From an uncultured Thermoleophilia bacterium (lineage in GTDB: Bacteria; Actinomycetota; Thermoleophilia; UBA2241), in assembly GCA_963713475.1 (NCBI GenBank), contig CAVQLY010000017.1:37606-101605 (forward strand): a stretch of 64,000 bases of DNA, given 5' to 3'. The notes under the pieces were generated by a model, which did not search any database, had not been told where the DNA came from, and worked only from the letters and a program-made list of their open reading frames with translations. A program made the translations under genes and the position numbers. Positions 12,873 through 31,339 of this stretch are shown piece by piece. Within the stretch, counting starts at the first letter, position 1. Each line of letters starts with the position of its first letter.

Positions 12873-12900
12873 GTCGTCTTCACCGGAATCAGGTGAATCT
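12873..12900. promoter_or_regulatory. copy 1 of 26-bp palindromic motif (gtcgtcTTCACCGGAATCaGGTGAAtct), ~90 bp upstream of lipoprotein gene 12318..12788
   Basis: Near-perfect inverted repeat shared with five other intergenic sites. Confidence 0.6.
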
Positions 12901-12965
12901 CTGCCCGCGCCTGGCGCGGGAGCCAGTTGCTGCGTGTGTCCACGACCCCCAGCGGGAGTTCGGGT

Positions 12966-13574
12966 TTACGGGGTTGGTGAGGCGGACACCGGCAGGAACT
13001 TGAAGTTCCCGCTCAGGTCCATGTAGGCGAAGGTGCCTGCCGGGTAGGCCCAGCCCTCATCGTGCTCCTGCCAGCGCACGAAGCGGATCTCGGGGGCCCA
13101 GACCACGCCGTCGGGGTCGGTGCCGGGGTCGCCGCTCATGGCGCTGAGGAAGGCCAGGACGTAGTGACGCCCGGCCTCCAGCACGACCGGCTCGATCGGC
13201 TCGTAGCGGAAGAGACCGTCCAGCTCGCTGGCATCGCCGACGGTGACGGTCGGCGTGACGGCCTTCTTGTAGGAGTCGTAGATGACGACCTTGTGGTCGT
13301 TGCGCAGGCCGTCCTGGCCGTGGTCGTAGAAGCCGAGGGCGCTGACCTCGATGTCGACCAGGGGCACGAACTGGAGACCGCCGGTGCCTCCCGAGGGCTA
13401 CACCGACTCAACCGGCTTCTGGTCGGCAGGGAACGTGACCGCGGCCACCGGGGTCGTGCGCATCGGCAGGTCGGCCGGTGTCGTCGTTCCCGAGCCGCAG
13501 GCGGCGAGGGCGAGCGCGGCGAGCAGCACCAGCGCGGCGCAGATGGACATACGAGCTGCTTCCCGCACCTTCAT
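12966..13574 (-). CDS. hypothetical lipoprotein (in-frame TAG at 13398-13400)
   Basis: Start ATG 13574 gives MKVREAARMSICAALVLLAALALAACGSG lipoprotein signal. The frame continues through one TAG (ESV*PSGG) into the 133-aa ORF 12966..13367. The signal peptide is paralogous to that of gene 15811..16946. Confidence 0.4.
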
Positions 13575-13638
13575 CACCGGCTCCTCTCCCCGCGATGCTG
13601 CTGTTGCGTCTCCTCGTCACGCGGCTCGCGGGCGACGG

Positions 13639-14199
13639 CTACCTCGACCTGCAAGGCGGCAGCCACCAGGCGCCCGAGTAGTTGGCGACGCCGGTGCCGC
13701 TCTCGGCTTCCGCGACCACGTCCTCGGTCCACGTCCCCATCCCGAAGAGGCCCTTGAGCCCGCCGGTGCCCCTCACGACCGACCAGTGGCCCGTCATCGG
13801 GGTCCCCTCGGGCACGCCAGCCGGGATCTCGACGGTCAGCGCGATGTCCGCAGTCCCGTAGTGGCCGGCGACCTTGCCTCTGAAGCCGATCGAGATCAGG
13901 GCCCAAGCGTCGCCCTCAGGGCCACCGTAGACGCACCAGGGCTCGACGGACTTGCCGTTGAACGTGCCTGTCCAGGTCCCACGCTCACGGTCGTTGAAGC
14001 TGTACGACAAATCGTTGAGCATGGCGCCCCATTCGATGCCGTAGTCGACGTAGGTCCACGTCCACACCCCCGAGGCCGGCGCCAGCACCGGGGTCGGCGG
14101 CGCGGGCTTGGCAGAGGCCGCCGGGGCGAGCATCCCCACCAGGATCGCGACGACGCACACCAGCAGGACTCCCCATCGTGCCCGTCTCATCGTCTCCAT
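13639..14199 (-). CDS. hypothetical secreted protein (~186 aa)
   Basis: METMRRARWGVLLVCVVAILVGMLAPAASA signal peptide; the rest of ORF-track ORF 13639..15063 upstream of 14199 is antisense shadow of the MFS gene. Confidence 0.5.
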   Translation of the reverse strand: METMRRARWGVLLVCVVAILVGMLAPAASAKPAPPTPVLAPASGVWTWTYVDYGIEWGAMLNDLSYSFNDRERGTWTGTFNGKSVEPWCVYGGPEGDAWALISIGFRGKVAGHYGTADIALTVEIPAGVPEGTPMTGHWSVVRGTGGLKGLFGMGTWTEDVVAEAESGTGVANYSGAWWLPPCRSR

Positions 14200-14290
14200 C
14201 TCTCTCGCGCGCACACTGGGTGCGCCTACAGGCTTCCGGCCGCCTCTCAGGCCGGCTTCCCCGCTACCGTAGAAGCGCCGCACCCACCCT

Positions 14291-14316
14291 GTCTTCACCG
14301 GAATCCGATGATTCTC
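14291..14316. promoter_or_regulatory. copy 2 of palindromic motif (GTCTTCACCGGAATCCGATGATTCTC), ~95 bp upstream of 13639..14199
   Basis: Sequence identity with other copies. Confidence 0.6.
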
Positions 14317-14375
14317 GGACGGTGACGAGCGTGGAGCAGGCAGCGTCCTCCTCCTTCGGCGATCCATGGGCGGGG

Positions 14376-15731
14376 TCAGTCGACGGGCCGGCCCCTCGGA
14401 GCGCCCGCCGGAGGCGCGGGCACGGCGATCCCGGTGGCCGCCTCCTCGCCCAGGCGCTCGGTCCGCAGGCCGAGCGCCCGGACCGACGGCACCGAGACCG
14501 CCAGCACGGAGAGCAGCGCCATCCCCACACCGGCGACGGCGATCACGCCGTCGAAGCTGAGGCGGATGAGGAAGCCGGCGAAGAGTTGCGACACCGGGAC
14601 CAGTCCGATCGACGCCAGCACCATCAGGCTCATCATGCGACCTTGCAGGGCCGGCACGGTCATGCGCTGCAGCCAGGTGATGAACAGCAGTCCGATGTAG
14701 CCGTTGATGAGCCCCATCCCGGCGGCCAGTGCCGCGATGCCGAGAAGCGTCGACCCCAGCGCGATGAGGCTGAAGAGGACGCCCATCACGATCGCCAGGA
14801 GTGGCAGCATGGACCCGAACAGCCTGGGCGGCGGGGGCGGCAGCACGCCGGCGAGCAGGATGCCGACAAGCGACCCGCCACCCTGCGCCGACACGATGAC
14901 GCCGAAGGCGACCGCGCCCTGGAGGCGGCTCTCGGCGATCAGAGGGATGCCGACCGTGAAGGGTCCGACGATCAGCAGGTTGACGCCGAGCAGCAGTCCG
15001 AAGACCACCCGGAGCGCCGAGTCGTGCCAGACAAAGGCGAGGCCCTCGCTGATGGACTGCCACAGGCTCTGCGCCTTCTGCGCGGCCGATGCGGCGGACG
15101 CCTGCGCGCGCAGGAGCGCCAGCGTGACGACCGAGATGAGGAAGGTCACCGCGTCGACGGCGAAGGCGAGGCCGATGCCGGTGAGGCCGTGCCCAGCCTC
15201 GCCCTGCCCGCCGGCGAACAGCGCGATGACTGCGCCGGCGAGCGCCGGCCCGACGAACAGGCTGGCCTGCGCCGTCCCCTGCACGGCGGTGTTGCCCAGC
15301 GGCAGATCATCGCCCTGCACCACACGGGGCACGATCGCCGTCTGTGCCGGGAAGAAGAATGCGTCGGCGACGCCGAACGCGAGAGCATACGCGTAGACCA
15401 TCCAGAGCTCCACGCGCCCGGAGATGACGACAGCCGCGAACAGCGCGGTCAGGACGAGCCGCGCCAGGTTGGAGACGAGCATCACTGCGCGCGGCGAGTA
15501 ACGGTCCGTGACTGCGCCGCCGACGAGCATGAGCACGGCGCGAGGGAAGGCGGCTGCGGCGAGGACGCCTCCGACCGCCACGGGGCTGCCCGTCAGCTTC
15601 ACGACCAGCCACGGCAGGGCGATGAGCTCGAACTGGTCGCCGATCAGGGAGACGGCCTCGCCGCCCCAGAGCAGGCGGAAGTCCCGGCCGCCGATGAGAC
15701 GTGCGAACGATGGGCGCCCCGGCTCCGTCAT
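14376..15731 (-). CDS. MFS transporter
   Basis: 12 predicted TM helices; start MTEPGRPSFARLIGGRDFRLLWGGEAVSLIGDQF typical MFS N-terminus; conserved GR[KR] loop motifs. Confidence 0.75.
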   Translation of the reverse strand: MTEPGRPSFARLIGGRDFRLLWGGEAVSLIGDQFELIALPWLVVKLTGSPVAVGGVLAAAAFPRAVLMLVGGAVTDRYSPRAVMLVSNLARLVLTALFAAVVISGRVELWMVYAYALAFGVADAFFFPAQTAIVPRVVQGDDLPLGNTAVQGTAQASLFVGPALAGAVIALFAGGQGEAGHGLTGIGLAFAVDAVTFLISVVTLALLRAQASAASAAQKAQSLWQSISEGLAFVWHDSALRVVFGLLLGVNLLIVGPFTVGIPLIAESRLQGAVAFGVIVSAQGGGSLVGILLAGVLPPPPPRLFGSMLPLLAIVMGVLFSLIALGSTLLGIAALAAGMGLINGYIGLLFITWLQRMTVPALQGRMMSLMVLASIGLVPVSQLFAGFLIRLSFDGVIAVAGVGMALLSVLAVSVPSVRALGLRTERLGEEAATGIAVPAPPAGAPRGRPVD

Positions 15732-15810
15732 GACCGGCTCCTCCACGTCAGCGCACTCACTTCCGAGGGGACGTCTACGCCCGGGCGGCGCGGAGTTCAA
15801 GCGTTTCGGG

Positions 15811-16946
15811 CAGCCGGGTGGCCGCGAGCCTCACTCCGGCCGCCAGGCGGCGTCTCTCGCCCCGGTGACGCCGGGGATGGCCGAGAGCGGAACCCCGCCC
15901 TTCACGCTTGACATAGGGGCGACGACCAAGGACGAAGACTCCCAGACCATGCCTGTGTTCGGCACCACCGACAGCCCCGTGCCGTCGGTGTTCACCACGT
16001 AGAGTGCGGACCCGGGGCAGAAGCCGCCGTAGGTGCTGGCGAACGCGAGGGCCTTGCCGTCCGGCGACCAGGTCAGGGCGACGCCGTAGGTGGCGCCGTA
16101 CCTGTCGACCCCGACGTAGCCTTCGCCGTTACCTTGTCGACCACCGTGACGGGGTCGCCGCCGGCGACGGGCAGGAGCACGATGCGGTCGGTGAGCTCCT
16201 CGTAGACGGCGAACGTCTTGCCGTCGGGCGAGAGCGCGAAGTGGCTGACGTCCCCGTCGTCGGTCATGCGCTTGAGTCCCGTGCCGTCCGGACGCACGGC
16301 CCAGACGTCGGCCCCGCCTCTGATGAAGAGGATCTTCGCGCTCGGCGCCCAGTTGGTCCAGGCGTCGCTATCCACGTCCGTGACCGTTTGGAGGCCGCCG
16401 CCGCTCGCGTTCACGACGGAGATGCCGTTCTTCCTCGCCCCGGGACGAGCTGTTGTGGAAGGCGATCCGCGTGCCGTCGGGCGACCAGGCGGGGTCATAG
16501 CCTCGGGCATCGCCCGTTGTCAGCTTGCGCTGGCCGGAGCCGTCGGCATTCATGACCCACACCGTGTAGAGCTTCCCCTCTGGGTTGCGCAGGCCGGAAT
16601 GGCAGTAGGCGATGCGCGTGCCGTCGGGCGACCAGACCGGCCCGTCCAGGGAGTAGCCGGCCTCGGAGGCCAGCGGCGTGAGGCCGGTGCCGTCCCCGTT
16701 GATCACGTAGATCTCCCCGAACTGCTGCTCGTTGACCTTCGCGAACACGAAGGTGCCGGCGACGCTCGCCGCCGGCAAGGGCGTCGCGCTCGACGACGTC
16801 GCGAGCGAGACCGCCTCCTGGCTGGACGCAGGCGACGGCGAGCTCGACGCCGTCGTGCTCGAGTCGCCGCAGGCGGCGAGGACGAGCGCCGCGAGCAGCA
16901 CGAGCGCGGCACAGATGGACAGACGAGATGCTTGCGCTTCCTTCAT
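15811..16946 (-). CDS. TolB-like beta-propeller lipoprotein (fragmented by >=2 frameshifts; 3' end approximate)
   Basis: MKEAQASRLSICAALVLLAALVLAACGDSS lipoprotein signal, then repeated (W)SPDG(T/K)(R)IA(F/Y) PD40-type blades continuing in ORFs 16368..17030, 16073..16510 and a third frame down to ~15811. Confidence 0.5.
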
Positions 16947-17003
16947 GACCGGCCCCTTCCCGTCGCTAGTCTCACTCCCGAGGGGCCGGTCCCCACAAAG
17001 CAC

Positions 17004-17047
17004 GAAGACCGACCCGCGGGTCGGTCTCACCAGTGGCTCCCCGCCGG
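17004..17047. repeat. leader module A: hairpin GAAGACCGACCCGCGGGTCGGTCTC + ACCAGTGGCTCCCCGCCGG (copy 1), upstream of lipoprotein gene 15811..16946
   Basis: Nearly identical module at 17723..17766 upstream of a different gene. Confidence 0.6.
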
Positions 17048-17212
17048 ATGAAGGTGGCCGTCAGGTGCCTCCGGCGGATCCTCGCCTCCCGTGTGCAGCG
17101 CTGCACTTCTCAGGAGTCTCGTATGGGGACGGTCTACGCCGGAACGGCAGGGACTTCAAGCGTTTTGGGGTGGTCGCGGCTGAAGTCGCCGGTGGCGGCG
17201 CGCACTCGTCCC

Positions 17213-17238
17213 GTCTTCACCGGGATCCGGTGATTCGT
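17213..17238. promoter_or_regulatory. copy 3 of palindromic motif (GTCTTCACCGGGATCCGGTGATTCGT)
   Basis: Sequence identity with other copies; ~270 bp upstream of lipoprotein start 16946. Confidence 0.6.
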
Positions 17239-17263
17239 CTCAGTGCGGGATCGATGCGAGGGT

Positions 17264-17668
17264 CAGCTGACCGGCCTCGCCGGTGGCGCGTGGTGCGCTC
17301 GTCTCGATGTGACCCAGGTGACTACAGCCCCGATGATGCCCACCACAAGTGCGGCGGGGCAGACGAAGATGGCGATGAGGAAGAAGACGCCTCCGCCCCC
17401 GATGCCGGCGTTCTCCAACGTCACACTGAGCGAGTGTGCACGCGATGAACGCCAGGACCGATGCGCCGGTCAGGAGGAGGAACCGCCTCGAGGTCCTCCA
17501 GGGATGAGCGACGGCCAGCACCAGGGCGATGGCCGAGAGCCACGCGAGCGACCCGCCCACAGGATTGTCGTCCATGCCCACGACGCCGGCTGCGGCTGCC
17601 AGAGCCCCGCACACCACGAAGAAGATCAGCGTCGTCTTCCACTGCGCTTTCGAGAATGCCTCGAACAT
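17264..17668 (-). CDS. small 4-TM membrane protein (frameshift near 17390)
   Basis: MFEAFSKAQWKTTLIFFVVCGALAAAAGVVG... has three TM helices. A fourth TM (GVFFLIAIFVCPAALVVGIIGAVVTWV) and the stop lie in another frame after a G-run. Confidence 0.4.
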
Positions 17669-17722
17669 GGCTCCGACTCCTCTCTGGCCCCCCGGCTCAG
17701 AGGAGGTTCCCCAAGAACCGCA

Positions 17723-17766
17723 GAGACCGGCCTCGCGGGCCGGTCTCACCAGTGACTCCCCGCCGG
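17723..17766. repeat. leader module A copy 2 (GAGACCGGCCTCGCGGGCCGGTCTC + ACCAGTGACTCCCCGCCGG)
   Basis: Aligned with 17004..17047; hairpin arms co-vary (compensatory changes keep the stem). Confidence 0.6.
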
Positions 17767-17841
17767 TGTGCGGTGGCCGCGTGCAGCCGCCGGCGGATCG
17801 ACGCCTCCCACGTTCTGATTATGCCCACTCGACCCATCGGT

Positions 17842-17867
17842 GTCTTCACCGGAATCCGGTGATTCTT
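17842..17867. promoter_or_regulatory. copy 4 of palindromic motif (GTCTTCACCGGAATCCGGTGATTCTT)
   Basis: Best (perfect 9+9) palindrome copy; ~175 bp upstream of 17264..17668. Confidence 0.6.
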
Positions 17868-17951
17868 CACCCGCCCGTCAGCGAGGCTGCCGCGCGATAG
17901 CAACGGCCGCTTCGGGGGTCGATACGGTGACCTCCGATCCGGCTCTCGACG

Positions 17952-19336
17952 TCACGCACCCTCCGCGCGCAGGCGCCGGAAGGGGTACCCCGCAACGTTC
18001 AGCCCGGTGACCACGCCCCGATCGTCGGTGAGGAAGCACGCCGCCTCCCCGGCAGGGCGCCCGGTGCGCACGGTCCACACCAGCGCGTCGCCGGTGGCGA
18101 CGAGCACGCTGGCATCATGCTCGCCGACGAGCGTCACCTGCCCGTCACGCCACTCGACGCGGACGACGCTGCTGTGGTCGTCGTCGTCCTGGTAGGGGCC
18201 GAGCAGGCGCTCCACCTCCGCCGGCGGCGGCGCGGGCGGAGCGGCCGGCTCCGGCTCCGGCCGGCCGCGCAAGGCACCGGCGGCCAGCGTCCCGAGTTCC
18301 ATGGCGAGCTTGCCGGCGTCGGCGATGCCGTTCAGCAGGACGATCGACGCCGACGCCGTCCTCGGGCCGGAACAGCGTGCGGCTGATGAAGCCGGGCACG
18401 CCGCCGGCGTGGCCCAGCCAGGGAGAACCGTCGGGTGCGGCCTCCGAGTACCAGCCGAGTCCCTGAAGGGCCGGCGGCGAGTCGGCGGTGAGGATCCGGC
18501 AATCCTGCATCTCGGCCAGGGATCGCGGCGAGAGCACGGGATGGGAGGCGTCGCTCCAGCGATCGGCGGTCATGGCGAAGGCGAGGAAGCGCGCCAGGTC
18601 GGCGACCGTCGACCAGAGCATGCCGCACCCGGGCATGAGGTCCGGGTCGAGTACCCGGGCGGGCCGAAGCACGTCGGAGTCCTCGCGGACGTCGTAGCCC
18701 ACCGCGCAGCGGTCCGCAAGGTCCCCCGTGGGATGACAGGTGGTGGCGGCCATCCCCAGCGGTCGCAGGACGCGCCGCTGCAGCACCTCCTCGTAGTCGC
18801 CGCCGTTGAGACGCGCCACGACCTCGCCGAGCAGGTCGAAGCCGAGGTTGCAGTACTTGTTGGCGCTGGACGGCGGGATCGCGACCCGCACGCTGCCGAG
18901 CGCCGCGAGCAACTGCTCGCGGCGCAGTTCGGCGGGTCGCGTGAGGTCGGTGTACGGGTGCTCCCCCTGCAGGCCCGACTCGTGCATCAGGAGGCGGCGG
19001 ATGGTCACGTCCTCGATCGGGGCCAAAGGGGTTGGTGACCTGGGCGAACTCCGGAAGGTGCACGACCAAGGGGTCGTCGAGACGCAGCCGTCCTTCGTCT
19101 CGCAACTGCATGACGCCGATCGCCGTGAAGACCTTGGTGTTGGAGGCGATGCGGTACGGCGTGTCGGCGTCCGGCCGACGCGCCGCGGCGAGGTCGGCGA
19201 AGCCGGCCGCTCCGGCCCATGCAAGGCCGTCGCGGCCGACCACGCCCACGGCGGCGCCCGGCAGGCGTTCCTCGCGCACGAACGCGCGGGTGCGGTCGAG
19301 CAGTTGCTCGGCGACGGTCGCGACGTTCTCGTCCAT
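17952..19336 (-). CDS. serine hydrolase / beta-lactamase-family protein (fragmented by >=2 frameshifts)
   Basis: Active-site S-x-x-K (IASNTKVFTA) in ORF 18332..19510; YxN-like region and HAGG(V) motif in ORF 18145..19224; C-terminal lipocalin-like tail in ORF 17952..18302; the three pieces are collinear. Confidence 0.6.
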
Positions 19337-19555
19337 CTCGGCTCCCGTGGCAGGTGTCAGGCCCGGTCGGATTGTCCGCCCCGGCCCCACCGGGGGCAAG
19401 GGCGGGCGCCGTGGCCGAGGCGCCCAGGCCGGACACCATGGCCGCGGCGCCCCACGCTCGCCGACTGCGCCGTCCAGACCGGCCTGCTGCCGGCCGGGGA
19501 GCTCCCACACTGACCGCTCCCCGGCCGGCAGCCGGAACCACCGGGTCCGGCCGGC

Positions 19556-20993
19556 TCAGAACTTCTGTGGCTGCAGGATCGCCCTGCCGGTGACCGACGC
19601 CCGCGAGGCGCCCAGCGACCGTGCCGCGCCGCCCGTCACGAGCTCGGTGACGCGGATGAGGAGGTTGTCGGTGCCCTCATCGAGGACCTCAGTCCTCGGG
19701 CCGCCGCCGAGCACCAGGCAGTGGCTCGACTCGGCGCCGAGCCAGATCTGGGCCGCCGGCCCTTCGAAGACGTTGACCGGACGGACCTTGCTGACGTCGT
19801 TACCGATGATGCGCCAGCCGTGGCCCGGCCCCCACGGGTACCCCCAGAAGCCGTAGATGTCGGTGCCGGCGTCGATCCCCGCGATCCCCGTGCCGCGGAT
19901 CCGGTTGCCGATGACGCGCACGCCCTCGGCCCCCACGCCGTTGACTCCGCCGTCCCAACCATCGTTGTCCAGGGTGATGCGGTTCTCGGCCACGACGGCG
20001 CGCAACCTGCTGGGCGCGCCGAGCATCCACGAGTCGTCCTCGAGGAGCACTCCGCCGGCGCCGACGACCAGTGCCGTCATCGAACTCGATCGTCCCGGCG
20101 TAGATCGAGTTGTGGTGGATGAAGTACTGCGGCGCCGGCAGGGGCGGCAGTTCGTCCACGGTTTGCGCGCCGACGCCCTGCATGATCAGGACGCCCTCTC
20201 CCCACAGCGTGCTCATGCGGTTGTACGAGATCTCGCTGCGCGAGTCGCTGTAGTAGTCCAGTTTGCAGGGCACGCCGGCCAGATCGAAGGTGTTGCCCAT
20301 GCCCGGACGCCCTCCGACGACCAGTCCGCCGCCGGTGATGCCGCCGGTCTCGAGGCCGTCGTTCCCACCCCGGAACGAGCAGCGCGTCACGCGATGCGTC
20401 CCCGAGGTGTCGTAGATGGCGACCGCTCCATCCATGTTGAAGCCGTTGAGCTCACCGTAGTGTGGCTCGAAGCTCACTCTGTCGAACGAGGAGCGTGAGT
20501 CACGGGTCACGATGAAGACATCGGAGAGGTGGTACCACTCAGACTCCCAGGCCTCCCATCGCTCGCACGGCTGCTCGTCGGTGATGTCGAAGCTCATGTC
20601 GGCGACGCGCACGTCGCTCTCGACGAGGGCGATGAGGCTCGTCCACTCTGCGAGCGGCGCCGTCCCGCCCGGGTCAATCGCCAGTTCGACCCCCGGAAGC
20701 TCCGGGTCGAGGCCTCGCAGGGTGTCGATGACCGTCCTGTCCATCCCGGCGCCCTTGAAGCAGCCGTCGAAGCCTTTCACGACGATCTCGTTGGTGTAGA
20801 ACTTGCCCTTCGTCAGCTTGACCACGCTGCCGGGCCCGGCCGCGACGGCGGCGTCGAACGCTTGCTGGAGCGCAGCGGTGTCGTCCCCGCCGCTGGGCGC
20901 GACGACGAACGTCCGTGGTCCGGCCAGGGCCGGCGCGGCGAGCACGCAGACCAGGGCGACGGTGAGCACGAGCAGAAGCGGCAATCTCTTCAT
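19556..20993 (-). CDS. secreted right-handed parallel beta-helix repeat protein (frameshift near 20075)
   Basis: Signal peptide MKRLPLLLVLTVALVCVLAAPALAGP; NxxG/GxxG beta-helix-like repeats (GNRIRGTGIAGIDAG...); C-terminal part continues in ORF 19556..20080. Confidence 0.5.
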
Positions 20994-21130
20994 GATCCGA
21001 GTCCTTTCTCCACATGCGTCGAGCGCTCGCCGCTCCGCGACGCGCGCCTGCCGGAAAGGCTGTTCCATAGGCGCTCCACTGCTGCCGGGTCCGTACGACT
21101 TCGCCCATCGTGAACGGTCGACGCGACGCC

Positions 21131-21156
21131 GTCTTCACCGGAATCCGATGATTCTC
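21131..21156. promoter_or_regulatory. copy 5 of palindromic motif (GTCTTCACCGGAATCCGATGATTCTC)
   Basis: ~135 bp upstream of beta-helix gene start; 70 bp from tRNA-Ile 3' fragment. Confidence 0.6.
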
Positions 21157-21207
21157 CGGCTGGGGAGGGGCGGCGGCAGTCAGGTCTGGCGGCGAAGAGA
21201 GGCCGCC

Positions 21208-21261: not shown

Positions 21262-21265
21262 GCCG

Positions 21266-22618
21266 TCAGTCGCCTTGACCGTAGGTCTGCAGCGACTCGG
21301 CCACCGCCAGCAACTCGTCGCGGGTGAGGCCGCCGCGGATCACCACGTCGAGCGGCACGTCGCCGGAGTGCACGTAGATCTGGGCGACGGCAGCCCAAAG
21401 CCCGATGAACACATCCGCGCGCGAACCGCTCATCGCCCCGCGCGTGAGTGTCACGCTCTGGCTCAGGTCGCCGGCGGTGAACGCGCCCCCGGCGAAGTCG
21501 TTGAGCCCGTTCGGACCGGAGACGTCCTCCTCCGACAGGATCGCGACGGTGAAGCTGCTGAGCCCACGCCGGTAGACCATGCTCACCAGGGGGCTGTGGC
21601 TGCGTTGGCCCTGGCCGCCGGCGAACTCGGCAGATGCGGTGACGTCGGTCAAGGTGAAGCCGTCCGGCACTTGGGCGGGGACCACCGGGGCGTATCCCAC
21701 GATGCCCTTGACTGCCGAGAGTGCCACGCGCTTGAACCCGTCGTCTTGCCGCGCCCGACCCGAGCCTCCCTGAGAGAGCTGCACCGCTCCCGGCCGGAAC
21801 AGCGACGGGTCGAGCGGTTCGTTGACGCGCACGTTCTCCATGTGGCGCTCCCACATCGGGTGGCCGTTCTCGCGCGAGCTGTAGCCGAACACCAGACCCG
21901 TCTCCTGATCGACGACCAGGCGGATCTCCAGGCTGTTCGCCGAGTGGTCGGCGAACGTCACCGTCCAGGACGGTCGGCCGTTCAGCGTGCTGGTGCGCAC
22001 GTCCATGCCTTCCTGGCCAGCGGCCAGCAGGGCGCGCAGTGCCGTCCCATAGCCGGCTCCCATGAAGTAGTTGGAACTGTCGCCGGCATTGCCGAAGACG
22101 CTGCCGGCCGGGAGCCCTGTCGACACCTGCGTGGCGACGAGGCGACCGTCCACGCGCTCCAGTGTCCACTGGGTGCCCAGCGCAGCATTGTGGATGACCG
22201 CCCACTTGCCGTGCTCGTCCTCGACGCGCCCGTCGCCGTTCGCGGCGAGGTACACACGGCTCCTGCTCGTGACGGGGGCATCGCCGTTCTGGTAGTCGAC
22301 ACCGATGTCGTCGGCGGTGAAGCTGCGAACGGCGCCGAGCGAGCCACTCATCTTCGCGAGCACCTGGGCGGCGAGGGAGATCTGCGGACCGCTGTCCCGG
22401 ACTCCGGGCAGGCCGAAGAGCACCACGGCTACCGTCACCGCAGCCGCCACGGCCGCGGCGGCGAGGCCGAAGCGGAGCACGCGGCGGCGCCGCGGCGCCG
22501 CGGCCGGCCTTTCTCGCTCCAGCGTCGTGACGAGCCGGGAGTAGTACCCCTCGGGGAGCTCCGGCACCGGGATGCTCGCCAGAGCCTGACCCATCTTGAG
22601 GTCGCGATCCGTGTTCAT
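21266..22618 (-). CDS. anti-sigma factor with large extracytoplasmic domain (450 aa)
   Basis: Overlaps ECF sigma gene stop by 4 nt; cytoplasmic N-terminus, single TM (VLRFGLAAAAVAAAVTVAVVLFGL); C-terminal ...LLAVAESLQTYG paralogous to C-terminus of 29549..31045. Confidence 0.55.
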   Translation of the reverse strand: MNTDRDLKMGQALASIPVPELPEGYYSRLVTTLERERPAAAPRRRRVLRFGLAAAAVAAAVTVAVVLFGLPGVRDSGPQISLAAQVLAKMSGSLGAVRSFTADDIGVDYQNGDAPVTSRSRVYLAANGDGRVEDEHGKWAVIHNAALGTQWTLERVDGRLVATQVSTGLPAGSVFGNAGDSSNYFMGAGYGTALRALLAAGQEGMDVRTSTLNGRPSWTVTFADHSANSLEIRLVVDQETGLVFGYSSRENGHPMWERHMENVRVNEPLDPSLFRPGAVQLSQGGSGRARQDDGFKRVALSAVKGIVGYAPVVPAQVPDGFTLTDVTASAEFAGGQGQRSHSPLVSMVYRRGLSSFTVAILSEEDVSGPNGLNDFAGGAFTAGDLSQSVTLTRGAMSGSRADVFIGLWAAVAQIYVHSGDVPLDVVIRGGLTRDELLAVAESLQTYGQGD

Positions 22619-23274
22619 GCTTCACCACCACGTTCGTTCGGGTCGCCCAGCAGGCGGCGGACGGTCGCTCTCGCGATCGAGACACGGGAACTCACCGTCC
22701 CCGCCGGGACGCCGATGATCTCGCCGGCGGTCCGGTAGTCGTAGCCCTCCTGGTCGATCAGTAGCAGCGCGGCGCGCTGGTCGGCAGGCAGAGCACCCAG
22801 GGCCGCATCGAGCCTCTCCCACGCCACGAGCCTGTCGAGAGGGTCAGATTCCGGCTCCACCGTGTGCTCCTCGAGAGGAGCCGGTTGTTCCAGCAACCCC
22901 GGCCTTCGTCTCAAGCTGTCCAGGCAGGTGTTGTAGAGGATGCGGTAGAGCCACGTGCCCACTCCCGAGCGGCTCTTGAACCCGGGCAGCGCACGATAAG
23001 CCTTGATCGCCGCGTCCTGCACGGCGTCTTCCATCTCGTCCTGGTCGCCGAGCAGCCGGTAGGCCAGGAGGCGAAGCTGCCGGTCGTGCATCTGGAGGAT
23101 CTCGGCGAACGCCCGCGCGTCGCCACGCTTGGCGGCGGCAAGGACGGCCGGATGCACCTCAGTACGCGGCGGCGCGGTCAGATCGCTCCCTCGTCTGGTG
23201 TGGGAAGTCCCTCGCTCAGCTTCGCCGCACGCAAGGTCCCCGCCTTCACCGATCGCCACGGACTTGCCCTCCAC
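22615..23274 (-). CDS. ECF (sigma-70 family) RNA polymerase sigma factor
   Basis: Region 2 (DAVQDAAIKAYRALPGFKSRSGVGTWLYRILYNTCLD) and region 4 (LPADQRAALLLIDQEGYDYRTAGEIIGVPAGTVSSRVSIARATVRRLL); N-terminal start uncertain (likely internal GTG). Confidence 0.8.
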   Translation of the reverse strand: MEGKSVAIGEGGDLACGEAERGTSHTRRGSDLTAPPRTEVHPAVLAAAKRGDARAFAEILQMHDRQLRLLAYRLLGDQDEMEDAVQDAAIKAYRALPGFKSRSGVGTWLYRILYNTCLDSLRRRPGLLEQPAPLEEHTVEPESDPLDRLVAWERLDAALGALPADQRAALLLIDQEGYDYRTAGEIIGVPAGTVSSRVSIARATVRRLLGDPNERGGEA

Positions 23275-24285: not shown

Positions 24286-24360
24286 GAGACCGAGGTCGGC
24301 GGAATTCGGGGCGCATCAACCCTGGGGGACGAGCGGAGGATCTGGCGGAGGGGAGGAATC

Positions 24361-24418: not shown

Positions 24419-24443
24419 CACCGCCAACGGCCGCCGGCCTGAG

Positions 24444-24854: not shown

Positions 24855-24896
24855 GATGAGCGCCTCCCCTCGAGGATCCGTATGCGTTGATCGAGT

Positions 24897-24922
24897 CTAC
24901 CCCCCGACGCCACGTGGATTCG
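24897..24922 (-). repeat. short fragment matching tRNA-Ile T-arm (CACGTGGATTCGAACCACGGACC)
   Basis: 23-nt identity to tRNA-Ile T-stem/loop; flanks diverge. Confidence 0.4.
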
Positions 24923-24999
24923 AACCACGGACCAAGCTTCCGCTTCTCGCCATCATGGTCCGCCCACACAGATCGCGGATGCACCCAGCCGTGCTCGCT

Positions 25000-25782: not shown

Positions 25783-26669
25783 CTCTCGATCGGTACTGTG
25801 CACCAGTCGAGCACGGCCCGGCGAAACTCGTCGGGCTTCTCGTAGGCCGGGATGTGGCCGCAGTCGGGAATGACCACGAGCTCGGCGCCGGGTACGCGGC
25901 GAGCGATCTCCCTCGCATTTGCCGGCCCGCAGATGAAGTCCAGCTCGCCGACGACGACCAGCGTCGGCACGCGGATCTGGGGCAGTAGCGCGAAGAGGTC
26001 GTCCTGATAGGCGGATTCGTCGGAGATGGCCCACGGTTCACGGCCGAAGCGCAGATCGCGGCTGAGGCGCGCTATGTGCTGCTGGGCAAGAGGCCGCTCG
26101 GGGTGGGCGAAGTAGAGGGGCCACGCAGGGTTCCACGTCGCTTCGGGATCGTCGTTCTGGAGGAATCCGGGCTCGGCGGCGGCGTCCCAGGCGACCTTCG
26201 CCGCTTCGAACCAGGGCTCTCCAGCGTGTCGCTCGAAGCCCGCCGCCATCTCGGCCTTGGCCTCGGGCCCATCATCGACGTCGCGGCAGGCGCCCCAGGC
26301 GTCGATGGCGATGCAGCGACGCGTCGAGGCAGGGAAGAGCGCCGCGTAGGCGAGACAGACGGTCCCGCCCCAGGAGTGGCCGAGCAGCGTCACCGGCGGA
26401 AGACGGAGGGCACCGCGCACGTTCTCGTAGAACGCCGCCGAACCCCTTGCCCCGTACTCCCGCTTGTCACTCGGCGGCGTCGTGCCACCGGTGCCGGGCG
26501 CGTCGACCAGATAGCAGCGGAAGTGGTCGGCGAGCACCTCGCAGTCACCGCGACCGAGGGCGGCGTTGAAGCCGGGGCCGCCCTCGAACCAGAGCGCGGG
26601 TTCCCCGTCACCGACGACCTCGTAGGTGACCTGGCGGTCGTCGTCCAAGACGAGGATCTCGGTCGTCAT
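25767..26669 (-). CDS. alpha/beta-fold hydrolase
   Basis: HGWGG-type nucleophile elbow (LLGHSWGGTV), C-terminal PDCGH catalytic His region; start MTTEILVLDDD. Confidence 0.6.
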   Translation of the reverse strand: MTTEILVLDDDRQVTYEVVGDGEPALWFEGGPGFNAALGRGDCEVLADHFRCYLVDAPGTGGTTPPSDKREYGARGSAAFYENVRGALRLPPVTLLGHSWGGTVCLAYAALFPASTRRCIAIDAWGACRDVDDGPEAKAEMAAGFERHAGEPWFEAAKVAWDAAAEPGFLQNDDPEATWNPAWPLYFAHPERPLAQQHIARLSRDLRFGREPWAISDESAYQDDLFALLPQIRVPTLVVVGELDFICGPANAREIARRVPGAELVVIPDCGHIPAYEKPDEFRRAVLDWCTVPIERWRNP

Positions 26670-26800
26670 GCCGCTCCTCCAAGGCAGTGCGGGCTCCGCA
26701 TCACCCTGCCATCGCACGCCGCCAAAGGCCAGAGAGCACCGTTCGGCACCACGCAATCGGATCGCAGGATGGTCACACAACGAGGATCTGGCGGAGGGTG

Positions 26801-26900
26801 GAAGACGCGGTTTCCCTGGAAACCACCGGATGGCGCAGGCGGATTCGAACCACAGCCCCTTCGGTGGTCACCTCAGAACGGTCATCGGCGAAGAAACCGC
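26801..26900 (-). other. tRNA-like element (73-nt tRNA-shaped sequence with TTCGAAT T-loop; imperfect fold) followed by hairpin GCGGTTTCCCTGGAAACC
   Basis: Aligns with the hairpin+3'-end architecture of tRNA-Ile (GCGATTTCGCTGGAAATCGC-TGGTGGGCGCACGTGGATTCGAACC). T-stem and acceptor pairing are only partial, possibly because of indel errors. Confidence 0.3.
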
Positions 26901-26959
26901 GCCTCCCGCCATCTAACCAGACCATCTGACCAGAAGACGCACAGCCAAAGGGGGAGGTC

Positions 26960-28818
26960 ATGAAAGGAAGATACGGCATCCGACTGGGCTGGCTGATCCT
27001 GGTGCTGCTCGTGATCCTGGCGTTGGGATCCGTCGTGGCGGCGTGTGGCTCACCCAGCTCCAGCTCGGCCTCCGGCGCCCCGAGCGCAGAGGGGAACGCG
27101 GCGAGCCCAGCCGTCCTCGCGACGCCGACGGCAATCGCGACGGACCGGCCCAACGTGCCCTCCGCAGAGATCATGGCCGTCCTGGAGGGTCGCATCGCCG
27201 CCATGAACGAGGGTGACGGTGCTGCTGCGGCGGCCTTCTACACGGAGGACGGAGTCCTCGAGGAGACCGACTTGACGCCCCATCTCGTATCCACGGGGCG
27301 AGAGCGGCTGGCGGCGAGGTTCGACGACCTCTATCGCGCAGGGCCTGCGCCTCGCCCCCGCCGGCACGCCGATCGCCTACGACAGGTACGTCGCCGAGCC
27401 GACACGGTTCTACAACGGCAACGAGCCGGGGCGCGGCGCCGGCATGCTCGTCTTCGAGATCGGTGCCGGCAACAAGCTCGCGTATCAGTGGATGATCGGC
27501 TGGGCCGCGGGGCCCGAGGAGGCCTTCGCGCATCACGAAGTCGCCGGCGGTCGACCGGCCCAACCTGCCGCCGCGCCGGGTCATGAAGGTCCTCGATGGC
27601 CTCACGGCGGCCATCAACCGCGGCGATGGTCAGGCCGCGGCCTCCTACTTCGCCGAGGATGGCAAGCAGGAGGAGCTGAACGAGGAGCCGAGTCTCGTCT
27701 TCAAAGGACGCGAGGCCATCGCGACCCGGCTCGAGGAGCTCCACGGCATGGGCCTGCGCCTCGCGTCGGCGGGAGCGCCCATCACCTACGACAAGTACGT
27801 CGCCGAGCCAGTACGCTTCTTCAACGGAGACGGCTCCGGACGAGGTGCGGGGATGCTCGTCTTCGAGTTCGACCCCGCGTACAAGATCGCCCACGAGTGG
27901 GTCATCGGATGGGCGGACGAGTCCGCCGATGGCAGCCAGGCGGCAGCGACCGGCACGACGACCTCGCCGACAAGCGCCGGTCCTGGGGAGATCGCCTTCA
28001 CCAAAGGCACCCTGAGTGGAAGCCTGATCCAGGAGGAGGGCATCTACCTGGTGCATGCCGACGGTACGGGACTTACTCCTCTTGTCGCCGAGGCCGGCGC
28101 AAGGAACCCCGCCTGGTCGCCGGACGGCGCCAGCATCGCCTACTTCGACGGGAGGGGCGTCAATGTCATCAACGCGGACGGGTCCGGGAAGCGGTTCGTC
28201 ACGGCTGCGAAGGCCTGGGGAGGTTGGGCAGGGTGGCTCACCTGGTCGCCCGACGGCGCGCAGATCGCCTTCACCAGCTACACCGGGGACAAGAGCGACC
28301 TCTACCTGGTCAACGCGGACGGGAGCGCCCGAAGGCAGCTCACGCACGGGCAGGCCAAGACCAGGGTGGGACACCTGGGATGGGCTCCGGACGGACGGAT
28401 CTTCTTCGACAGGCGCGCCGGCGACGCCGGAGAGACGCGGATCTACTCGATCAACGCCGACGGTACAGGGCTGACCGCGCTCAGGGACGTACCCGGCATC
28501 GGCTCCTTCTCGCTCTCGGCGGACGGCAAATGGCTGTTGGTGTGGGAGGCGAACGGCCTCGTGCGCGTGCCCGCGTCAGGCTCGAGGCCGCGCAGGGAAG
28601 TGCTCGTCACGTTCGGGATCACGCAGCGGATCAAGGCGCGATCGTTCTTCGCGCTTGCTTCCGCGTGGGCGCCGGACGGCAAGAGGATCGCGATCGCTGC
28701 GGACCAGCAGGCCTGGATCCCTCCGACCCCTCTCTGGGTCATAGGCGCGGACGGCCGGCACCTCAGGAGGATCCCGCACGCGGGCGCGGGCTGGAACGCC
28801 GCGTGGCGACCGGAGTAG
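26960..28818 (+). CDS. lipoprotein with tandem-duplicated NTF2/SnoaL-like domain and C-terminal TolB-like beta-propeller (split by >=3 frameshifts)
   Basis: RBS GGGGGAGG; lipobox VVAACGS. Repeat 1 (IMAVLEGRIAAMNEGDGAAAAAFYTEDG...MLVFEIGAGNKLAYQWMIGWA) and repeat 2 (VMKVLDGLTAAINRGDGQAAASYFAEDG...MLVFEFDPAYKIAHEWVIGWA) are collinear across three frames. They are followed by PD40-type blades (WSPDGASIAY, WSPDGAQIAF, WAPDGRIFF, WAPDGKRIAI). Confidence 0.5.
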
Positions 28819-28976
28819 GAGCATGGCGCCGAGCCGCTGCGCATCCGCTTCCGTTGGGGACGTGTATGGTTCTCCTGCTGGCCACCGTGGACGGTCGAGC
28901 GCCGGGTGGTCACGCTCTGGCCCGGCCCCTCCCGGTCAGGCCTCGGTCTGGTGGCGATGCGTCGAGGAGCGTCGCC

Positions 28977-29552
28977 GTGGCACGCGTGGACGATGCGGAT
29001 GCAGTCCGTGACGAGCTGGACCCGGAGGTCCTGCGGCGGGCGAAGCGTGGCGACCGGGACGCGTTCGTGCGACTGATGGACCACTACGACCGCCGTCTGC
29101 GGTCGCTCGCCTTCCGCCTGCTTGACGACCGTGACGACGCGATCGACGCCATGCAGGACGTCTACGTGAAGGCGTTCGGCGCGCTGCCGGGGTTCCGGGA
29201 GAAGTCCTCGGTCGGCACCTGGCTCTACCGCATCACCTACACCACGTGCTGCGAGCACCTGCGACAACGCAGACGCAGCCCCCTCCATCTCGACGACGAG
29301 GAGCCACCGGCCTCCTCGTCGTCAGCGCGGGATCCGGCCGACGAGGCCACCCTGCACGCTGACCTGGCCGTCGCGCTGCGCTCCCTCAGCCCGGAGGCCC
29401 GGGCCGCCGTCCTGCTCGTCGACCGCGACGGCTACGACTACCGCACGGCCGCGGGCATCCTCGACATCCCGCAGGGGACGCTGGCGTCGCGGTTGTCGGC
29501 GGCCCACGCCGTGCTGCGGCGGGCGCTGCGCGGAGAGGAGGCGCCGTCATGA
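28977..29552 (+). CDS. ECF sigma factor (paralog of 22615..23274), GTG start
   Basis: Region 2 DAIDAMQDVYVKAFGALPGFREKSSVGTWLYRITYTTCCEHL and region 4 LSPEARAAVLLVDRDGYDYRTAAGILDIPQGTLASRLSAAHAVLRRAL; stop overlaps anti-sigma start. Confidence 0.75.
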   Translation: MARVDDADAVRDELDPEVLRRAKRGDRDAFVRLMDHYDRRLRSLAFRLLDDRDDAIDAMQDVYVKAFGALPGFREKSSVGTWLYRITYTTCCEHLRQRRRSPLHLDDEEPPASSSSARDPADEATLHADLAVALRSLSPEARAAVLLVDRDGYDYRTAAGILDIPQGTLASRLSAAHAVLRRALRGEEAPS

Positions 29553-31045
29553 GGCGCCGCAAGGACGACGTGAACGGCGGCGAGAGGCGCGATCTCGAAC
29601 TCGGACGCGCGCTCGAAGAACTCGACGCGCCGGAGTACCCGCCGGGCTTCCTCGCCGCCGTATGGGCGCGCGTGGACGCCGGAGAGGTGGCGGCGCGCGA
29701 GGCAACGGACGGCGCGGCCGCGGCGCGGCCGCTCAAGTCCCGCCGGCGGTGGTTCCGCCGCCCTGCGTTCGTGGCGACCGCAGCCGCCGTGGCGGTCGGG
29801 GCCGTCATCGCCGTGGCCTTCCTCGCCGGCGTGCCCGGCATCTCCAGGTTGAGCGGCCCCGAACCGGTCTCCGCCGCCGAGGTCATCCAGAAGGCGCTGC
29901 GGGCGATGTCCTCCGGCAAGACGCTGGTCATCGCCCACACCGCGAGGGAGATCGACGGCTACGTCCCGGGCGGCGAGGCGGACTACAGGACCACCCACGT
30001 CCGCCTCGTCATGCGCTCCGACGGCAGCTACCGGCTGGTGCAGACCGACGTCGCTCCCGTCTCCGTGGCCAAGGGTAGGCCGCGGCAGGGGTACGAGGGA
30101 GGCGTCTACGATGCTCCCACCGGCGTCTTTCGCCACTACGTCGTCGGGTGGGAGGAGGATGCCGGCAGGTACATGCGCGAAGCGGAGGTGACCACCGGCT
30201 GGCCGCTCGGGCCACCGGACACCTGGGTCAGCCTGGAGAGCGGCGTCCAGTCCGTGGCGCTGGCGCTGCGGTCCGCCGGCCGCGCGACGGTGACGACGAC
30301 CTCCTTCGCCGGCCGGCCGGTCTGGGTCATCTCCGCAACCGGGGTGATGGCCCTGCGCGACAAGACCGAACGTCAGACGATCGCGATCGACAGGCAGACC
30401 TGCCTGCCGCTCCGCGTGCAGGCGTGGAAGGACGGCATCCTCCAGGTCGAGTACACGTGGCGCTACGTCAGCGTAGACGCCCCGGTGCCGGAGTCGGCCT
30501 TCACGACTATCCCGACGAACCACATGAAGACGAAGCACTCCGACGGCGGCTTCCGCAGGTGGCCGCTGGCCAAGATCGCTGCGACGCCGGGCTACGTCGT
30601 GCTCCTGCCGGCCCGCTTGCCGGCCGGCTATCGCCTGCAGTGGGTCGCCGCCGCCGAGCGCTCGACGACGGCGAACGAGATCACCGAAGGACGCGACGTC
30701 ACGGCGCTGCAGTACGTGCGCGGCTTCGACGGCCTGACGGTCACCACGCGCACCGTGAGCGATCCCGAGGAGGCGGCCAAGTACGACCCCGTCGACTGGG
30801 AGACGTCCTACGCCGAGCTGGTGACCAGAGAAGTGACCCTGACGGGAGGGGCCTTCTCCGGCGCGACCGCTCACGTGGTCGTCGCGCCGGGCATCATGGT
30901 CCCCCACCTCTACGCGCTGAAGGGCGACGTCATGCTCACCGTCGTCGGGGCGGCGACGGCAGAGGAACTGGTCGCCGTCGCCGAGTCGACGCAGCCATAC
31001 GCGGTCAACGTCGCCTCCCCAAGCGCTCCGTCCTCGAACGACTGA
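29549..31045 (+). CDS. anti-sigma factor with large extracytoplasmic domain (498 aa), paralog of 21266..22618
   Basis: Translational coupling (ATGA) to sigma gene; single TM (AFVATAAAVAVGAVIAVAFLAG); C-terminal TAEELVAVAESTQPY conserved with paralog. Confidence 0.6.
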   Translation: MRRRKDDVNGGERRDLELGRALEELDAPEYPPGFLAAVWARVDAGEVAAREATDGAAAARPLKSRRRWFRRPAFVATAAAVAVGAVIAVAFLAGVPGISRLSGPEPVSAAEVIQKALRAMSSGKTLVIAHTAREIDGYVPGGEADYRTTHVRLVMRSDGSYRLVQTDVAPVSVAKGRPRQGYEGGVYDAPTGVFRHYVVGWEEDAGRYMREAEVTTGWPLGPPDTWVSLESGVQSVALALRSAGRATVTTTSFAGRPVWVISATGVMALRDKTERQTIAIDRQTCLPLRVQAWKDGILQVEYTWRYVSVDAPVPESAFTTIPTNHMKTKHSDGGFRRWPLAKIAATPGYVVLLPARLPAGYRLQWVAAAERSTTANEITEGRDVTALQYVRGFDGLTVTTRTVSDPEEAAKYDPVDWETSYAELVTREVTLTGGAFSGATAHVVVAPGIMVPHLYALKGDVMLTVVGAATAEELVAVAESTQPYAVNVASPSAPSSND

Positions 31046-31312
31046 TCCGGCCGCGACGAGAACCACTTCGGCCGGAACCCGTGGTTCGACGACCCGTCGC
31101 CGTGCAAGAAGAGGCGGTGGCACCCTGCGGCGCCACCGCCACGTTCCGCATCCCCCAGGGTGCCGACCCCGCCCCGCCCTAGCTTCGAGCGCCCGGCCAG
31201 CTCGGGCGCCGGCTCAATGCAGCACCGTGAATGCGCACCAGTTGTGGTACGACCAGTTCTTGTCCCCCGGCATGAACTTGTGGGTCCGGGCGTAGAAAGT
31301 CGTACGGCAGGT

Positions 31313-31339
31313 TGTCTTCACCGGATTCCGGTGATTCTC
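31313..31339. promoter_or_regulatory. copy 6 of palindromic motif (GTCTTCACCGGATTCCGGTGATTCTCC)
   Basis: Located 40 bp upstream of a 19-codon ORF (31214..31273, minus strand) and 160 bp from tRNA-Ile. Confidence 0.6.

Follow-up and report, generated by a model that had tools for sequence, protein, structure and literature searches.

A conserved dyad adjoining a -35-like hexamer marks a predicted regulon of exported-protein genes in uncultured Thermoleophilia

A 64,000-nucleotide stretch of DNA from an uncultured Thermoleophilia bacterium (GenBank assembly GCA_963713475.1, contig CAVQLY010000017.1, positions 37,606 to 101,605; hereafter the window) contains six intergenic copies of a motif that is best described as the signature of an undescribed regulon in uncultured Thermoleophilia, new as a signature and familiar in the kind of element that it represents. 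A first-pass annotation, made from the sequence alone, had reported these copies as a 26-bp near-perfect palindrome upstream of exported-protein genes and had proposed that they were the operator of a regulon. Here we report that the motif is a shorter dyad joined in fixed register to a -35-like hexamer, that it recurs with the same polarity upstream of exported-protein genes in many related genomes, and that part of the family stands directly ahead of a riboswitch. Taken as a whole, the explanation that we consider probable is that the motif is a promoter-embedded regulator site of a lineage-specific regulon, at which a dimeric helix-turn-helix (HTH) protein, with a MalT-like LAL protein as the candidate, would activate transcription.

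Results

Six polar copies of one motif

We searched the window with the 26-mer of the first-pass annotation, GTCTTCACCGGAATCCGGTGATTCTC, allowing up to three mismatches and using 100 shuffles as a control, and found exactly six sites (with 1–3 mismatches each) compared with 0 in the 100 shuffles. The sites were at 12876-12901, 14291-14316, 17213-17238, 17842-17867, 21131-21156 and 31314-31339, all on the plus strand, and a search with a 15-bp core returned the same six, with 0.18 expected, in a window with a G+C content of ~70%. When genes were called by third-position G+C, all six copies fell between genes, within a run of minus-strand genes. The shuffles and the gene calls thus bore out the annotated claim of six copies, all intergenic and far above chance; the coordinates given for copies 2–5 were also right, but the first copy had been placed 3 bases off and the last 1 base off. 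The description as a 26-bp near-perfect palindrome did not survive, because the true dyad has a geometry of only 8-1-8 and the outer bases differ on its two sides. When the six copies were aligned along with their 100-bp flanks, no conservation was seen beyond ~30 bp, in agreement with the earlier description of the flanks as unconserved, but the flanks do contain a -10-like hexamer.

The dyad adjoins the -35 of a predicted sigma-70-type promoter

A position matrix built from 56 sites had 27 conserved positions, which read towards the minus-strand genes as AAGAWTCACCKGATTCCGGTGAAGACA. On the gene strand, a 17-bp dyad, TCACCKGA-T-TCCGGTGA (on the plus strand TCACCGGA-W-TCCGGTGA), adjoins a -35-like hexamer, AAGACA. 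Because the bases outside the dyad differ on its two sides (GTCTT on one side and ATTCTC on the other), the motif is polar and has a direction. After the conserved block, the next information peaks in the matrix were an A at +43 and a T at +47. We then pooled 94 unique sites from the window, from metagenome-assembled genomes (MAGs) of Thermoleophilia and from metagenomes, and among these an xANNNT hexamer occurred in 77%, with 60% having it at offset 42 and the other 17% at offset 43, over a background of 2.4% per offset. With (A/T)AGACA as the -35 element, the spacer to the -10 is the canonical 17–18 nt, and the dyad and the -35 hexamer share one base in a register that is invariant across the 94 sites. 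The arrangement is that of a sigma-70-type promoter, with a TTGACA-like -35, a spacer of 17±1 nt and a TANNNT-like -10, and an independent consensus promoter scanner called AAGACA-17-CATAAT at copy 4 (17846-17818, minus strand). Each copy would accordingly form the upstream half of a sigma-70-type promoter reading towards the minus-strand gene, with AAGACA (the GTCTT side) serving as the -35 and c/tANNNT, after 17–18 nt, as the -10.

In the window, a -10-like hexamer stood 17–18 nt from the GTCTT side in five of the six copies, that of copy 6 being poor, and copy 4 matched the family consensus perfectly. The copies and their hexamers are as follows.

12875..12901, minus strand: copy 1, GAGATTCACCTGATTCCGGTGAAGACG; dyad 12880-12896; -35 hexamer AAGACG at 12875-12880
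12852..12857, minus strand: copy 1 -10-like hexamer CAAACT, 17 nt after the -35 hexamer, the fixed spacing found family-wide
14290..14316, minus strand: copy 2, GAGAATCATCGGATTCCGGTGAAGACA; dyad 14295-14311; -35 hexamer AAGACA at 14290-14295
14266..14271, minus strand: copy 2 -10-like hexamer TACGGT, 18-nt spacer
17212..17238, minus strand: copy 3, ACGAATCACCGGATCCCGGTGAAGACG; the most divergent copy, without a -10 hexamer at the family spacing; it may be a weak upstream promoter or a decaying site
17841..17867, minus strand: copy 4, AAGAATCACCGGATTCCGGTGAAGACA; dyad 17846-17862, centre 17854; -35 hexamer AAGACA at 17841-17846
17818..17823, minus strand: copy 4 -10 hexamer CATAAT, 17-nt spacer, the one also found by the independent scan
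21130..21156, minus strand: copy 5, GAGAATCATCGGATTCCGGTGAAGACG; dyad 21135-21151; -35 hexamer 21130-21135
21107..21112, minus strand: copy 5 -10-like hexamer CACGAT, 17-nt spacer
31313..31339, minus strand: copy 6, GAGAATCACCGGAATCCGGTGAAGACA; dyad 31318-31334; -35 hexamer 31313-31318
31289-31294, minus strand: copy 6 poor -10, TACGCC, with its final T missing

Judging from its predicted -10, transcription from copy 4 would start near 17811. With a start ~7 nt past the -10, the dyad would span -51 to -35 and be centred at -43, a position that depends on the predicted -10; relative to this putative start, the site has the geometry of a class-II-type site, namely a dyad of 16–20 bp that is centred at about -41 to -43 and overlaps the -35 in fixed register. 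Downstream of the sites, Shine-Dalgarno sequences and start codons were found within tens to a few hundred bases, and by crude gene calls the downstream gene was co-directional in 44 of the 53 cases that could be scored. At one related locus (L001), GAAGAC flanked a single dyad on both sides and a -10 followed in both directions, one of them leading into a riboswitch, which suggests that two divergent promoters share a single symmetric dimer site.

Directly upstream of the motif, at about -74 to -55, roughly a third or more of the sites carry a second block, (T/C)CACGCTCAGCGTCGCCCAA, which has a small dyad of its own (ACGCT-N-AGCGT), is seen across L001–L061 and appears weakly in the window at 14317-14336; it may represent an additional regulator site, or else belong to an intergenic cassette that has been duplicated.

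The promoter-like geometry bears on whether the whole 26-bp block might instead be what an alternative sigma factor recognises, such as one of the two extracytoplasmic function (ECF) sigma factors of the window, with the dyad incidental. Two ECF sigma/anti-sigma pairs do lie among the copies, and the spacer holds a weakly conserved G-C-(G/T)-(C/T) with GGATT 17 nt before it, a pairing that loosely recalls promoters of the form GGAAT-N18-GTT. However, the signal in the spacer reaches 0.3–0.5 bits, compared with about 1 bit each for the A and T of the TANNNT-type -10, and the 6–7 bp or so that sigma region 4 reads fall short of a two-fold symmetric 25 bp. Conservation moreover extends to the distal half-site, beyond any -35, the dyad of L001 serves both directions, and the motif precedes neither ECF operon in the window. 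ECF promoters have an AAC-containing -35 and a CGT-type -10 at 16–17 nt, and as a rule they also precede the operon of the sigma factor itself. For the weak spacer signal, the housekeeping-type -10, the symmetric 27-bp block and the lack of the motif at either ECF operon, we rejected an ECF promoter, and we regard recognition by an alternative sigma factor as very improbable. The two pairs that the first-pass annotation had pointed out within the block are real, but no link between them and the motif was seen. Their sigma genes are at 22615-23274 (operon 21266-23274, minus strand) and 28845-29552 (operon 28845-31045, plus strand), and the anti-sigma-like genes (21266-22618 and 29549-31045) are large and paralogous, with similar C-terminal ends and no Pfam match.

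The dyad fits a protein-binding site better than a hairpin

A palindrome between genes might also be a structural or mobile repeat: a repetitive extragenic palindrome (REP)-like element, the end of a miniature inverted-repeat transposable element (MITE), or the terminator hairpin of the upstream gene. Each copy lies 25–200 nt past the stop codon of the preceding co-directional gene, the core can form a hairpin of 6–8 bp, and a separate REP-like hairpin repeat occurs close by in related genomes. The substitutions within the arms speak against such an origin, because they break the pairing and are uncompensated. The combination T8:C14 was seen in 18 cases and T8:A14 in only 3; about a third of the sites have a T at position 8 of the distal arm, while the partner base stays C. 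This pattern points to a protein-binding site rather than a hairpin. In addition, no T-run follows the core on either strand, no copy was among the terminator-like matches, and the real terminator hairpins that do occur differ in sequence and lie about 40 nt further upstream; we therefore rejected an intrinsic terminator or RNA hairpin. The unique flanks and the fixed polarity led us to reject a MITE or REP element as well: orientation and spacing to the -10 and to the gene start are fixed, and neither a second inverted-repeat end nor a target-site duplication was visible in the six-copy alignment. A repeat of any of these kinds thus seems extremely unlikely, and the earlier statement that the motif is not a mobile repeat stands, target-site duplications of a MITE, which the annotation had named as a possible refutation, not being visible in the aligned flanks.

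As a predicted site for a dimeric DNA-binding protein, the motif fits better than as a hairpin. What remains of the original operator idea is the dyad and its fit to a dimeric regulator, which the uncompensated arm changes favour, but not a free-standing 26-bp palindromic operator.

The REP-like hairpin of the related genomes, GGCCCGCCACCCGTGAGGGCAGCGGGCC-TCTTCTG, is itself terminator-like and occurred 40 times in 561 kb of related loci (L001–L056; for example, L001 547-581, L006 1086-1120 and L018 1985-2019), often ~40 nt upstream of the motif, or else with another conserved stretch, CGACCGGCCACCGTTTCGGGGACTTCGCCCACACGCACAGAAC, after it. None was found in the window.

The motif recurs in uncultured Thermoleophilia

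We scanned one genome per species for the exact pattern and, separately, scanned metagenomes. The representative genomes yielded 27 loci, nearly all of them from MAGs of uncultured Thermoleophilia and the remainder single matches in other taxa, and the metagenome scan added 34 further contigs. Allowing ≤4 mismatches, the window and the genome loci together contained 58 sites, and the full pool with the metagenomes contained the 94 unique sites used above. Only 1–7 strict-pattern matches were found per representative genome, and some 8-kb loci held four to six sites, so the regulon appears modest in size and clustered. Two of the loci, L010 and L020, were 81–89% identical to parts of the window.

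Among the matches outside the class, a Streptomyces locus (L013, Streptomyces sp. NPDC001401) carried a 27-bp perfect palindrome, GGGAATCACCGGATTCCGGTGATTCCC, and a GAAGAC-type copy (at 6157-6183 and 7047-7074), ahead of genes for an NAD(P)-binding protein and a SnoaL-like protein. The dyad is thus the recurring unit and the -35 side an add-on, and a similar regulator–site pair may exist outside Thermoleophilia. The same locus also has a cobalamin riboswitch before metE.

The downstream genes encode mainly exported proteins

Of 81 distinct products encoded downstream of the motif, 62% had a hydrophobic N terminus, compared with 14% of 220 other open reading frames (ORFs) at the same loci (Fisher p = 2e-15), and 15 of the 81 had a lipobox-like cysteine. 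When 80 targets were compared with Pfam, most had no family; the recurrent families were SnoaL_2 (5), PD40 (4), GYD (3), other beta-propellers and DUF6176 (2), and no sugar-use genes were among them. These data, with the genome and metagenome scans, confirm both the fixed orientation of the motif upstream of minus-strand exported-protein genes in the window and its conserved role upstream of such genes across many uncultured Thermoleophilia. At the level of single copies, the annotated claim of exported products was correct for copies 1–5, but copy 6 has no real gene downstream. The targets in the window are as follows.

12318..12788, minus strand: copy 1 target, ORF for a lipoprotein-like product (MSLKRTTSIVLCLVAVLIIGVGCG...), preceded by a Shine-Dalgarno sequence; no Pfam match
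13639..14190, minus strand: copy 2 target, secreted protein (MRRARWGVLLVCVVAILVGMLAPAASA...)
12966-13577, minus strand: DUF4082-like lipoprotein gene, following the copy 2 target
16073..16946, minus strand: copy 3 target, gene for a PD40/TolB-like beta-propeller lipoprotein, ATG at 16946
17240..17668, minus strand: copy 4 target, small multi-pass membrane protein (MFEAFSKAQWKTTLIFFVVCGALAAAAGVV...), no Pfam match
19556..20993, minus strand: copy 5 target, secreted protein (MKRLPLLLVLTVALVCVLAAPALA...), no Pfam match; the beta-helix protein of the first-pass annotation
31113..31273, minus strand: short orphan transcription unit of copy 6, comprising a 19-codon ORF (31214-31273) and a terminator-like hairpin (31113-31140)

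Relatives of these targets are found behind the motif elsewhere: the paralogous family of the copy 2 target at L010, L020, L021 and L025, and an orthologue of the copy 5 target at L010. The unit downstream of copy 6 is ~180 nt long and convergent with an anti-sigma gene; its 19-codon ORF, MPGDKNWSYHNWCAFTVLH, lacks a Shine-Dalgarno sequence, and its terminator stem is 12 bp. Because a promoter homologous to copy 6 drives a lipoprotein gene at L011 and L021, copy 6 looks orphaned by rearrangement, and its unit may encode a small peptide, act as a small RNA or be a relic. A tRNA gene (74 bits; 31501-31574, minus strand) with a good promoter match, TTGACG-18-TACACT, at 31589-31618 (minus strand) lies immediately upstream of copy 6, and L011 has the same order, tRNA then motif.

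Several genes of the window are split into overlapping frames, at 16073-17030 (the PD40 lipoprotein, with frames 16368-16946 and 16073-16510), 17240-17749 (the small membrane protein), 18145-19510 (a beta-lactamase-family protein) and 19556-21068 (the secreted protein after copy 5, with frames 19800-20993 and 19556-20080). The split genes are either pseudogenes or the product of homopolymer-type errors in the sequencing of a long-read MAG.

A c-di-GMP-II-GAG riboswitch follows part of the family

The first-pass annotation had passed over two riboswitches in the window, one of which copy 4 drives and the other of which lies 115 nt downstream of copy 3. Using the Rfam covariance model RF03169 (gathering score 40), we found two c-di-GMP-II-GAG aptamers in the window, with scores of 52.8 and 67.4 bits, and 14 more in the genome loci. 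Both window aptamers score above gathering, lie 5′ of a same-strand gene and have an expression platform.

17729..17817, minus strand: c-di-GMP-II-GAG aptamer beginning 24 nt after copy 4, ahead of the small membrane protein gene
17010..17098, minus strand: c-di-GMP-II-GAG aptamer downstream of copy 3, preceding the PD40 lipoprotein gene

The expression platform of the first is a hairpin, GAGACCGGCC-CGCGA-GGCCGGTCTC, at 17723-17747, which overlaps the 3′ end of the aptamer and is followed by TGCGGTTCTT; when the copy-4 leader was folded, this terminator hairpin formed, with an unremarkable overall z-score of -1.4. At the second, a terminator-like hairpin (17005-17028) overlaps the 3′ end of the aptamer.

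In the window and its relatives, 14 of the 16 c-di-GMP-II-GAG matches start 21–25 nt after the end of the motif, a spacing at which the RNA would begin at the riboswitch. The two exceptions, the aptamer at window position 17098 and its orthologue at L021, share a different, motif-less upstream region. Of the sites in the window and the genome loci, about one in four had a riboswitch, which makes the promoter module the wider marker of the regulon. Where the riboswitch is present, it and its terminator platform would follow directly from the predicted transcription start, and the genes bearing it would be controlled twice, at initiation and then at elongation.

The RF03169 model itself does not include a fixed promoter–operator directly upstream, whereas one is present here. 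In the literature we found no paper noting a fixed promoter ahead of the c-di-GMP-II-GAG variant and no reported ligand for it; the papers that mention the variant only list the Rfam model.

A MalT-like LAL protein is the best candidate regulator

When the ORFs of the loci were clustered, a large protein with AAA_16, TPR and GerE/LuxR HTH domains (Pfam) proved recurrent, and its homologues in a large database were labelled MalT-like, with a WHD_MalT domain. Orthologues of this LAL protein (48–90% identity) were encoded in 7 of the 61 loci that had been selected by the motif. For the converse comparison, we fetched eight loci with LAL orthologues via the protein alone, without reference to the motif, and five of the eight had motif sites. 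At L062 and L066, a site lies 323 and 307 bp, respectively, upstream of the LAL start and reads the opposite way, the same divergent arrangement as seen at ~150 bp in the motif-picked locus L021; L066 has four sites in all. L065 has a site at the head of an operon whose last gene is a second LAL gene, at L070 a site with a riboswitch drives the neighbouring SnoaL gene, and at L063 the site is 7 kb from the LAL gene. At L064 a decayed site occupies the orthologous position. A locus with a LAL paralogue of 40% identity had no site. Because there are only 1–7 strict sites per representative genome, the proximity of LAL genes and sites is far above chance.

The recognition helix of the orthologue group reads SPNTVG(S/T)H..LHRKL, whereas that of paralogues is usually S.NTVK.H..YRKL, a deviation that fits a distinct DNA specificity. 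At L004 (2516-2878) and L033 (246-593), a conserved gene of ~117 codons, probably of the DUF6176 family, which matched two of the 80 targets, follows the motif directly and is itself followed by the LAL gene, an order which suggests that the LAL gene is co-transcribed from its own target promoter and thus autoregulated. We discounted L033 as an eighth LAL locus, which had been a frame artefact of this gene between the motif and the LAL gene. From its genomic association with the sites in relatives, the MalT-like LAL protein is our best candidate for the regulator. The annotated remark that no cognate regulator is obvious nearby holds for the window, but in relatives a plausible LAL/LuxR candidate stands beside the sites.

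Close to motif clusters there are also recurrent genes for adenylate/guanylate cyclase, AAA_16 and TPR proteins that carry a zinc ribbon (L017 4724-8000, L002 83-736 and L018 5530-5775), a possible second family of signalling partners.

Activation, repression and the case against the proposed regulon

In the mechanism that we favour, a dimer of LuxR-type HTH domains would bind the dyad near -43 and contact RNA polymerase at the adjoining -35, thereby activating transcription in a class-II-type arrangement, as at LuxR-type boxes. The dyad could also be a classical operator at which a dimeric repressor blocks the -35 hexamer of promoters that are otherwise constitutive. The one-base overlap between the dyad and the -35 hexamer is compatible with a repressor, and the -35 variants (AAGACA or ATGACA) match TTGACA at 4–5 of 6 positions and are not obviously defective, so that with an ideal 17-nt spacer the promoter might work unaided. 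Repressor operators usually vary in position, however, whereas the invariant register of the 94 sites is typical of activators that contact polymerase; the first base of the -10 is a sub-optimal C in 35 of 56 hexamers; and our leading candidate belongs to the MalT/LAL family, in which the characterised regulators are activators. For these three reasons the regulator is more likely to activate than to repress, and we consider a repressor unlikely.

Several observations nevertheless count against activation by a LAL protein at a promoter-embedded site, beginning with the -35 just described. In the window, a fitting -10 accompanies only copies 1, 2, 4 and 5; it is poor at copy 6 and missing at the family spacing at copy 3, and copy 6 drives no recognisable gene. 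The placement of the dyad relative to the transcription start rests in turn on predicted -10 hexamers. A tblastn search of the window found no LAL gene, and no other obvious regulator was seen there, while three of the eight LAL-centred loci (L064, L067 and L068) lack an intact site, the latter two having none at all. Part of the conservation of the motif may reflect paralogous genes that were duplicated along with their upstream regions, and many of the relatives' sites have a further conserved block, CCACGCTCAGCGTCGCCCAA, just upstream.

Other features of the window and related loci

A PIN-domain toxin gene at 32032-32475 (plus strand) is adjoined by a 756-codon ORF at 32562-34832 (minus strand), the N-terminal third of which looks non-coding; its real start is probably internal, at a segment resembling a signal peptide. 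Elsewhere, L006 has a tRNA-Sec gene (68 bits) at 5535-5628 (minus strand), and L012 has a PYLIS_2 match (50.6 bits) at 7910-8000 (plus strand) that is cut by the end of the locus and may be spurious.

Discussion

The closest described analogue of the motif is the box of PAS-LuxR regulators of the PimM type in Streptomyces, whose 16-bp palindrome, CTVGGGAWWTCCCBAG, occupies the -35 region of the promoters under their control (PMC9774167). Both are actinobacterial palindromes of similar size that sit on the -35 and have a GGA-W-TCC-like centre, and in the PimM system one LuxR-type HTH activator serves many promoters, as would the regulator proposed here. The two differ in that TCACCKGA-T-TCCGGTGA has an odd, single-base centre and does not match the PimM box in sequence, the candidate regulator has a STAND ATPase and TPR in place of a PAS domain, and the targets encode exported proteins of unknown function rather than belonging to polyketide genes.

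The lux and tra boxes of LuxR and TraR are inverted repeats of 18–20 bp near -42.5 that act in class-II-type activation. Our motif resembles them in the length of its dyad, its predicted centre near -43 over the -35, its strict register and the use of one dyad for divergent promoters, but it shares no sequence similarity with them and retains a recognisable -35 hexamer, and nothing here points to an acyl-homoserine-lactone receptor. In its domain order (AAA_16/STAND, MalT-type winged helix, TPR and LuxR HTH), the candidate regulator matches MalT and the actinomycete LAL proteins. As in the MalT regulon, the site is next to or over the -35, and the extra conservation upstream could represent additional sites, as at mal promoters. 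MalT boxes, however, are asymmetric GGGGAKGAGG repeats, whereas the site described here is a dyad; the recognition helix reads TVG(S/T)H rather than TVKxH, and no sugar-use genes are among the targets.

TCAC/GTGA-like half-sites near a -35 are also found in the class II site of CRP/FNR (TGTGA-N6-TCACA at -41.5) and in the BldD box (TNAC-N5-GTNA), and the response of BldD to cyclic di-GMP (c-di-GMP) echoes the riboswitch link. The half-sites of CRP are, however, in the opposite orientation, and our motif has TCAC-N9-GTGA rather than the N5 spacing of BldD; no CRP or BldD gene was linked to the sites. BldD, CRP and AtrA-like boxes were set aside because their spacing or orientation does not fit. 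The motif consensus matches none of the described boxes with which we compared it (lux, tra, PimM, CRP and BldD), and its exact core sequences were absent from the searchable literature.

The motif provides a sequence handle on a set of co-regulated and mostly unannotated exported proteins in an abundant, uncultured class of soil actinobacteria, a set that includes beta-propellers, SnoaL-like and GYD proteins and many proteins without a family. It also nominates a specific regulator family with a recognition helix unlike that of its paralogues, and the promoter module could be used as a search pattern for annotating Thermoleophilia MAGs. That an orphan riboswitch variant almost always lies behind one particular promoter narrows the search for its ligand and for the inducing condition. 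A more tentative extension, which we hold to be possible but rather doubtful, is a two-input switch for a lineage-specific secretome, in which a LAL protein with an unusual LuxR helix would license initiation and the riboswitch variant would decide on read-through. The promoter module labels the regulon whether or not a riboswitch follows, so that such a switch, if real, would supply both a defined set of genes and a defined regulator for tracing the riboswitch ligand and the physiological signal in uncultured soil Thermoleophilia.

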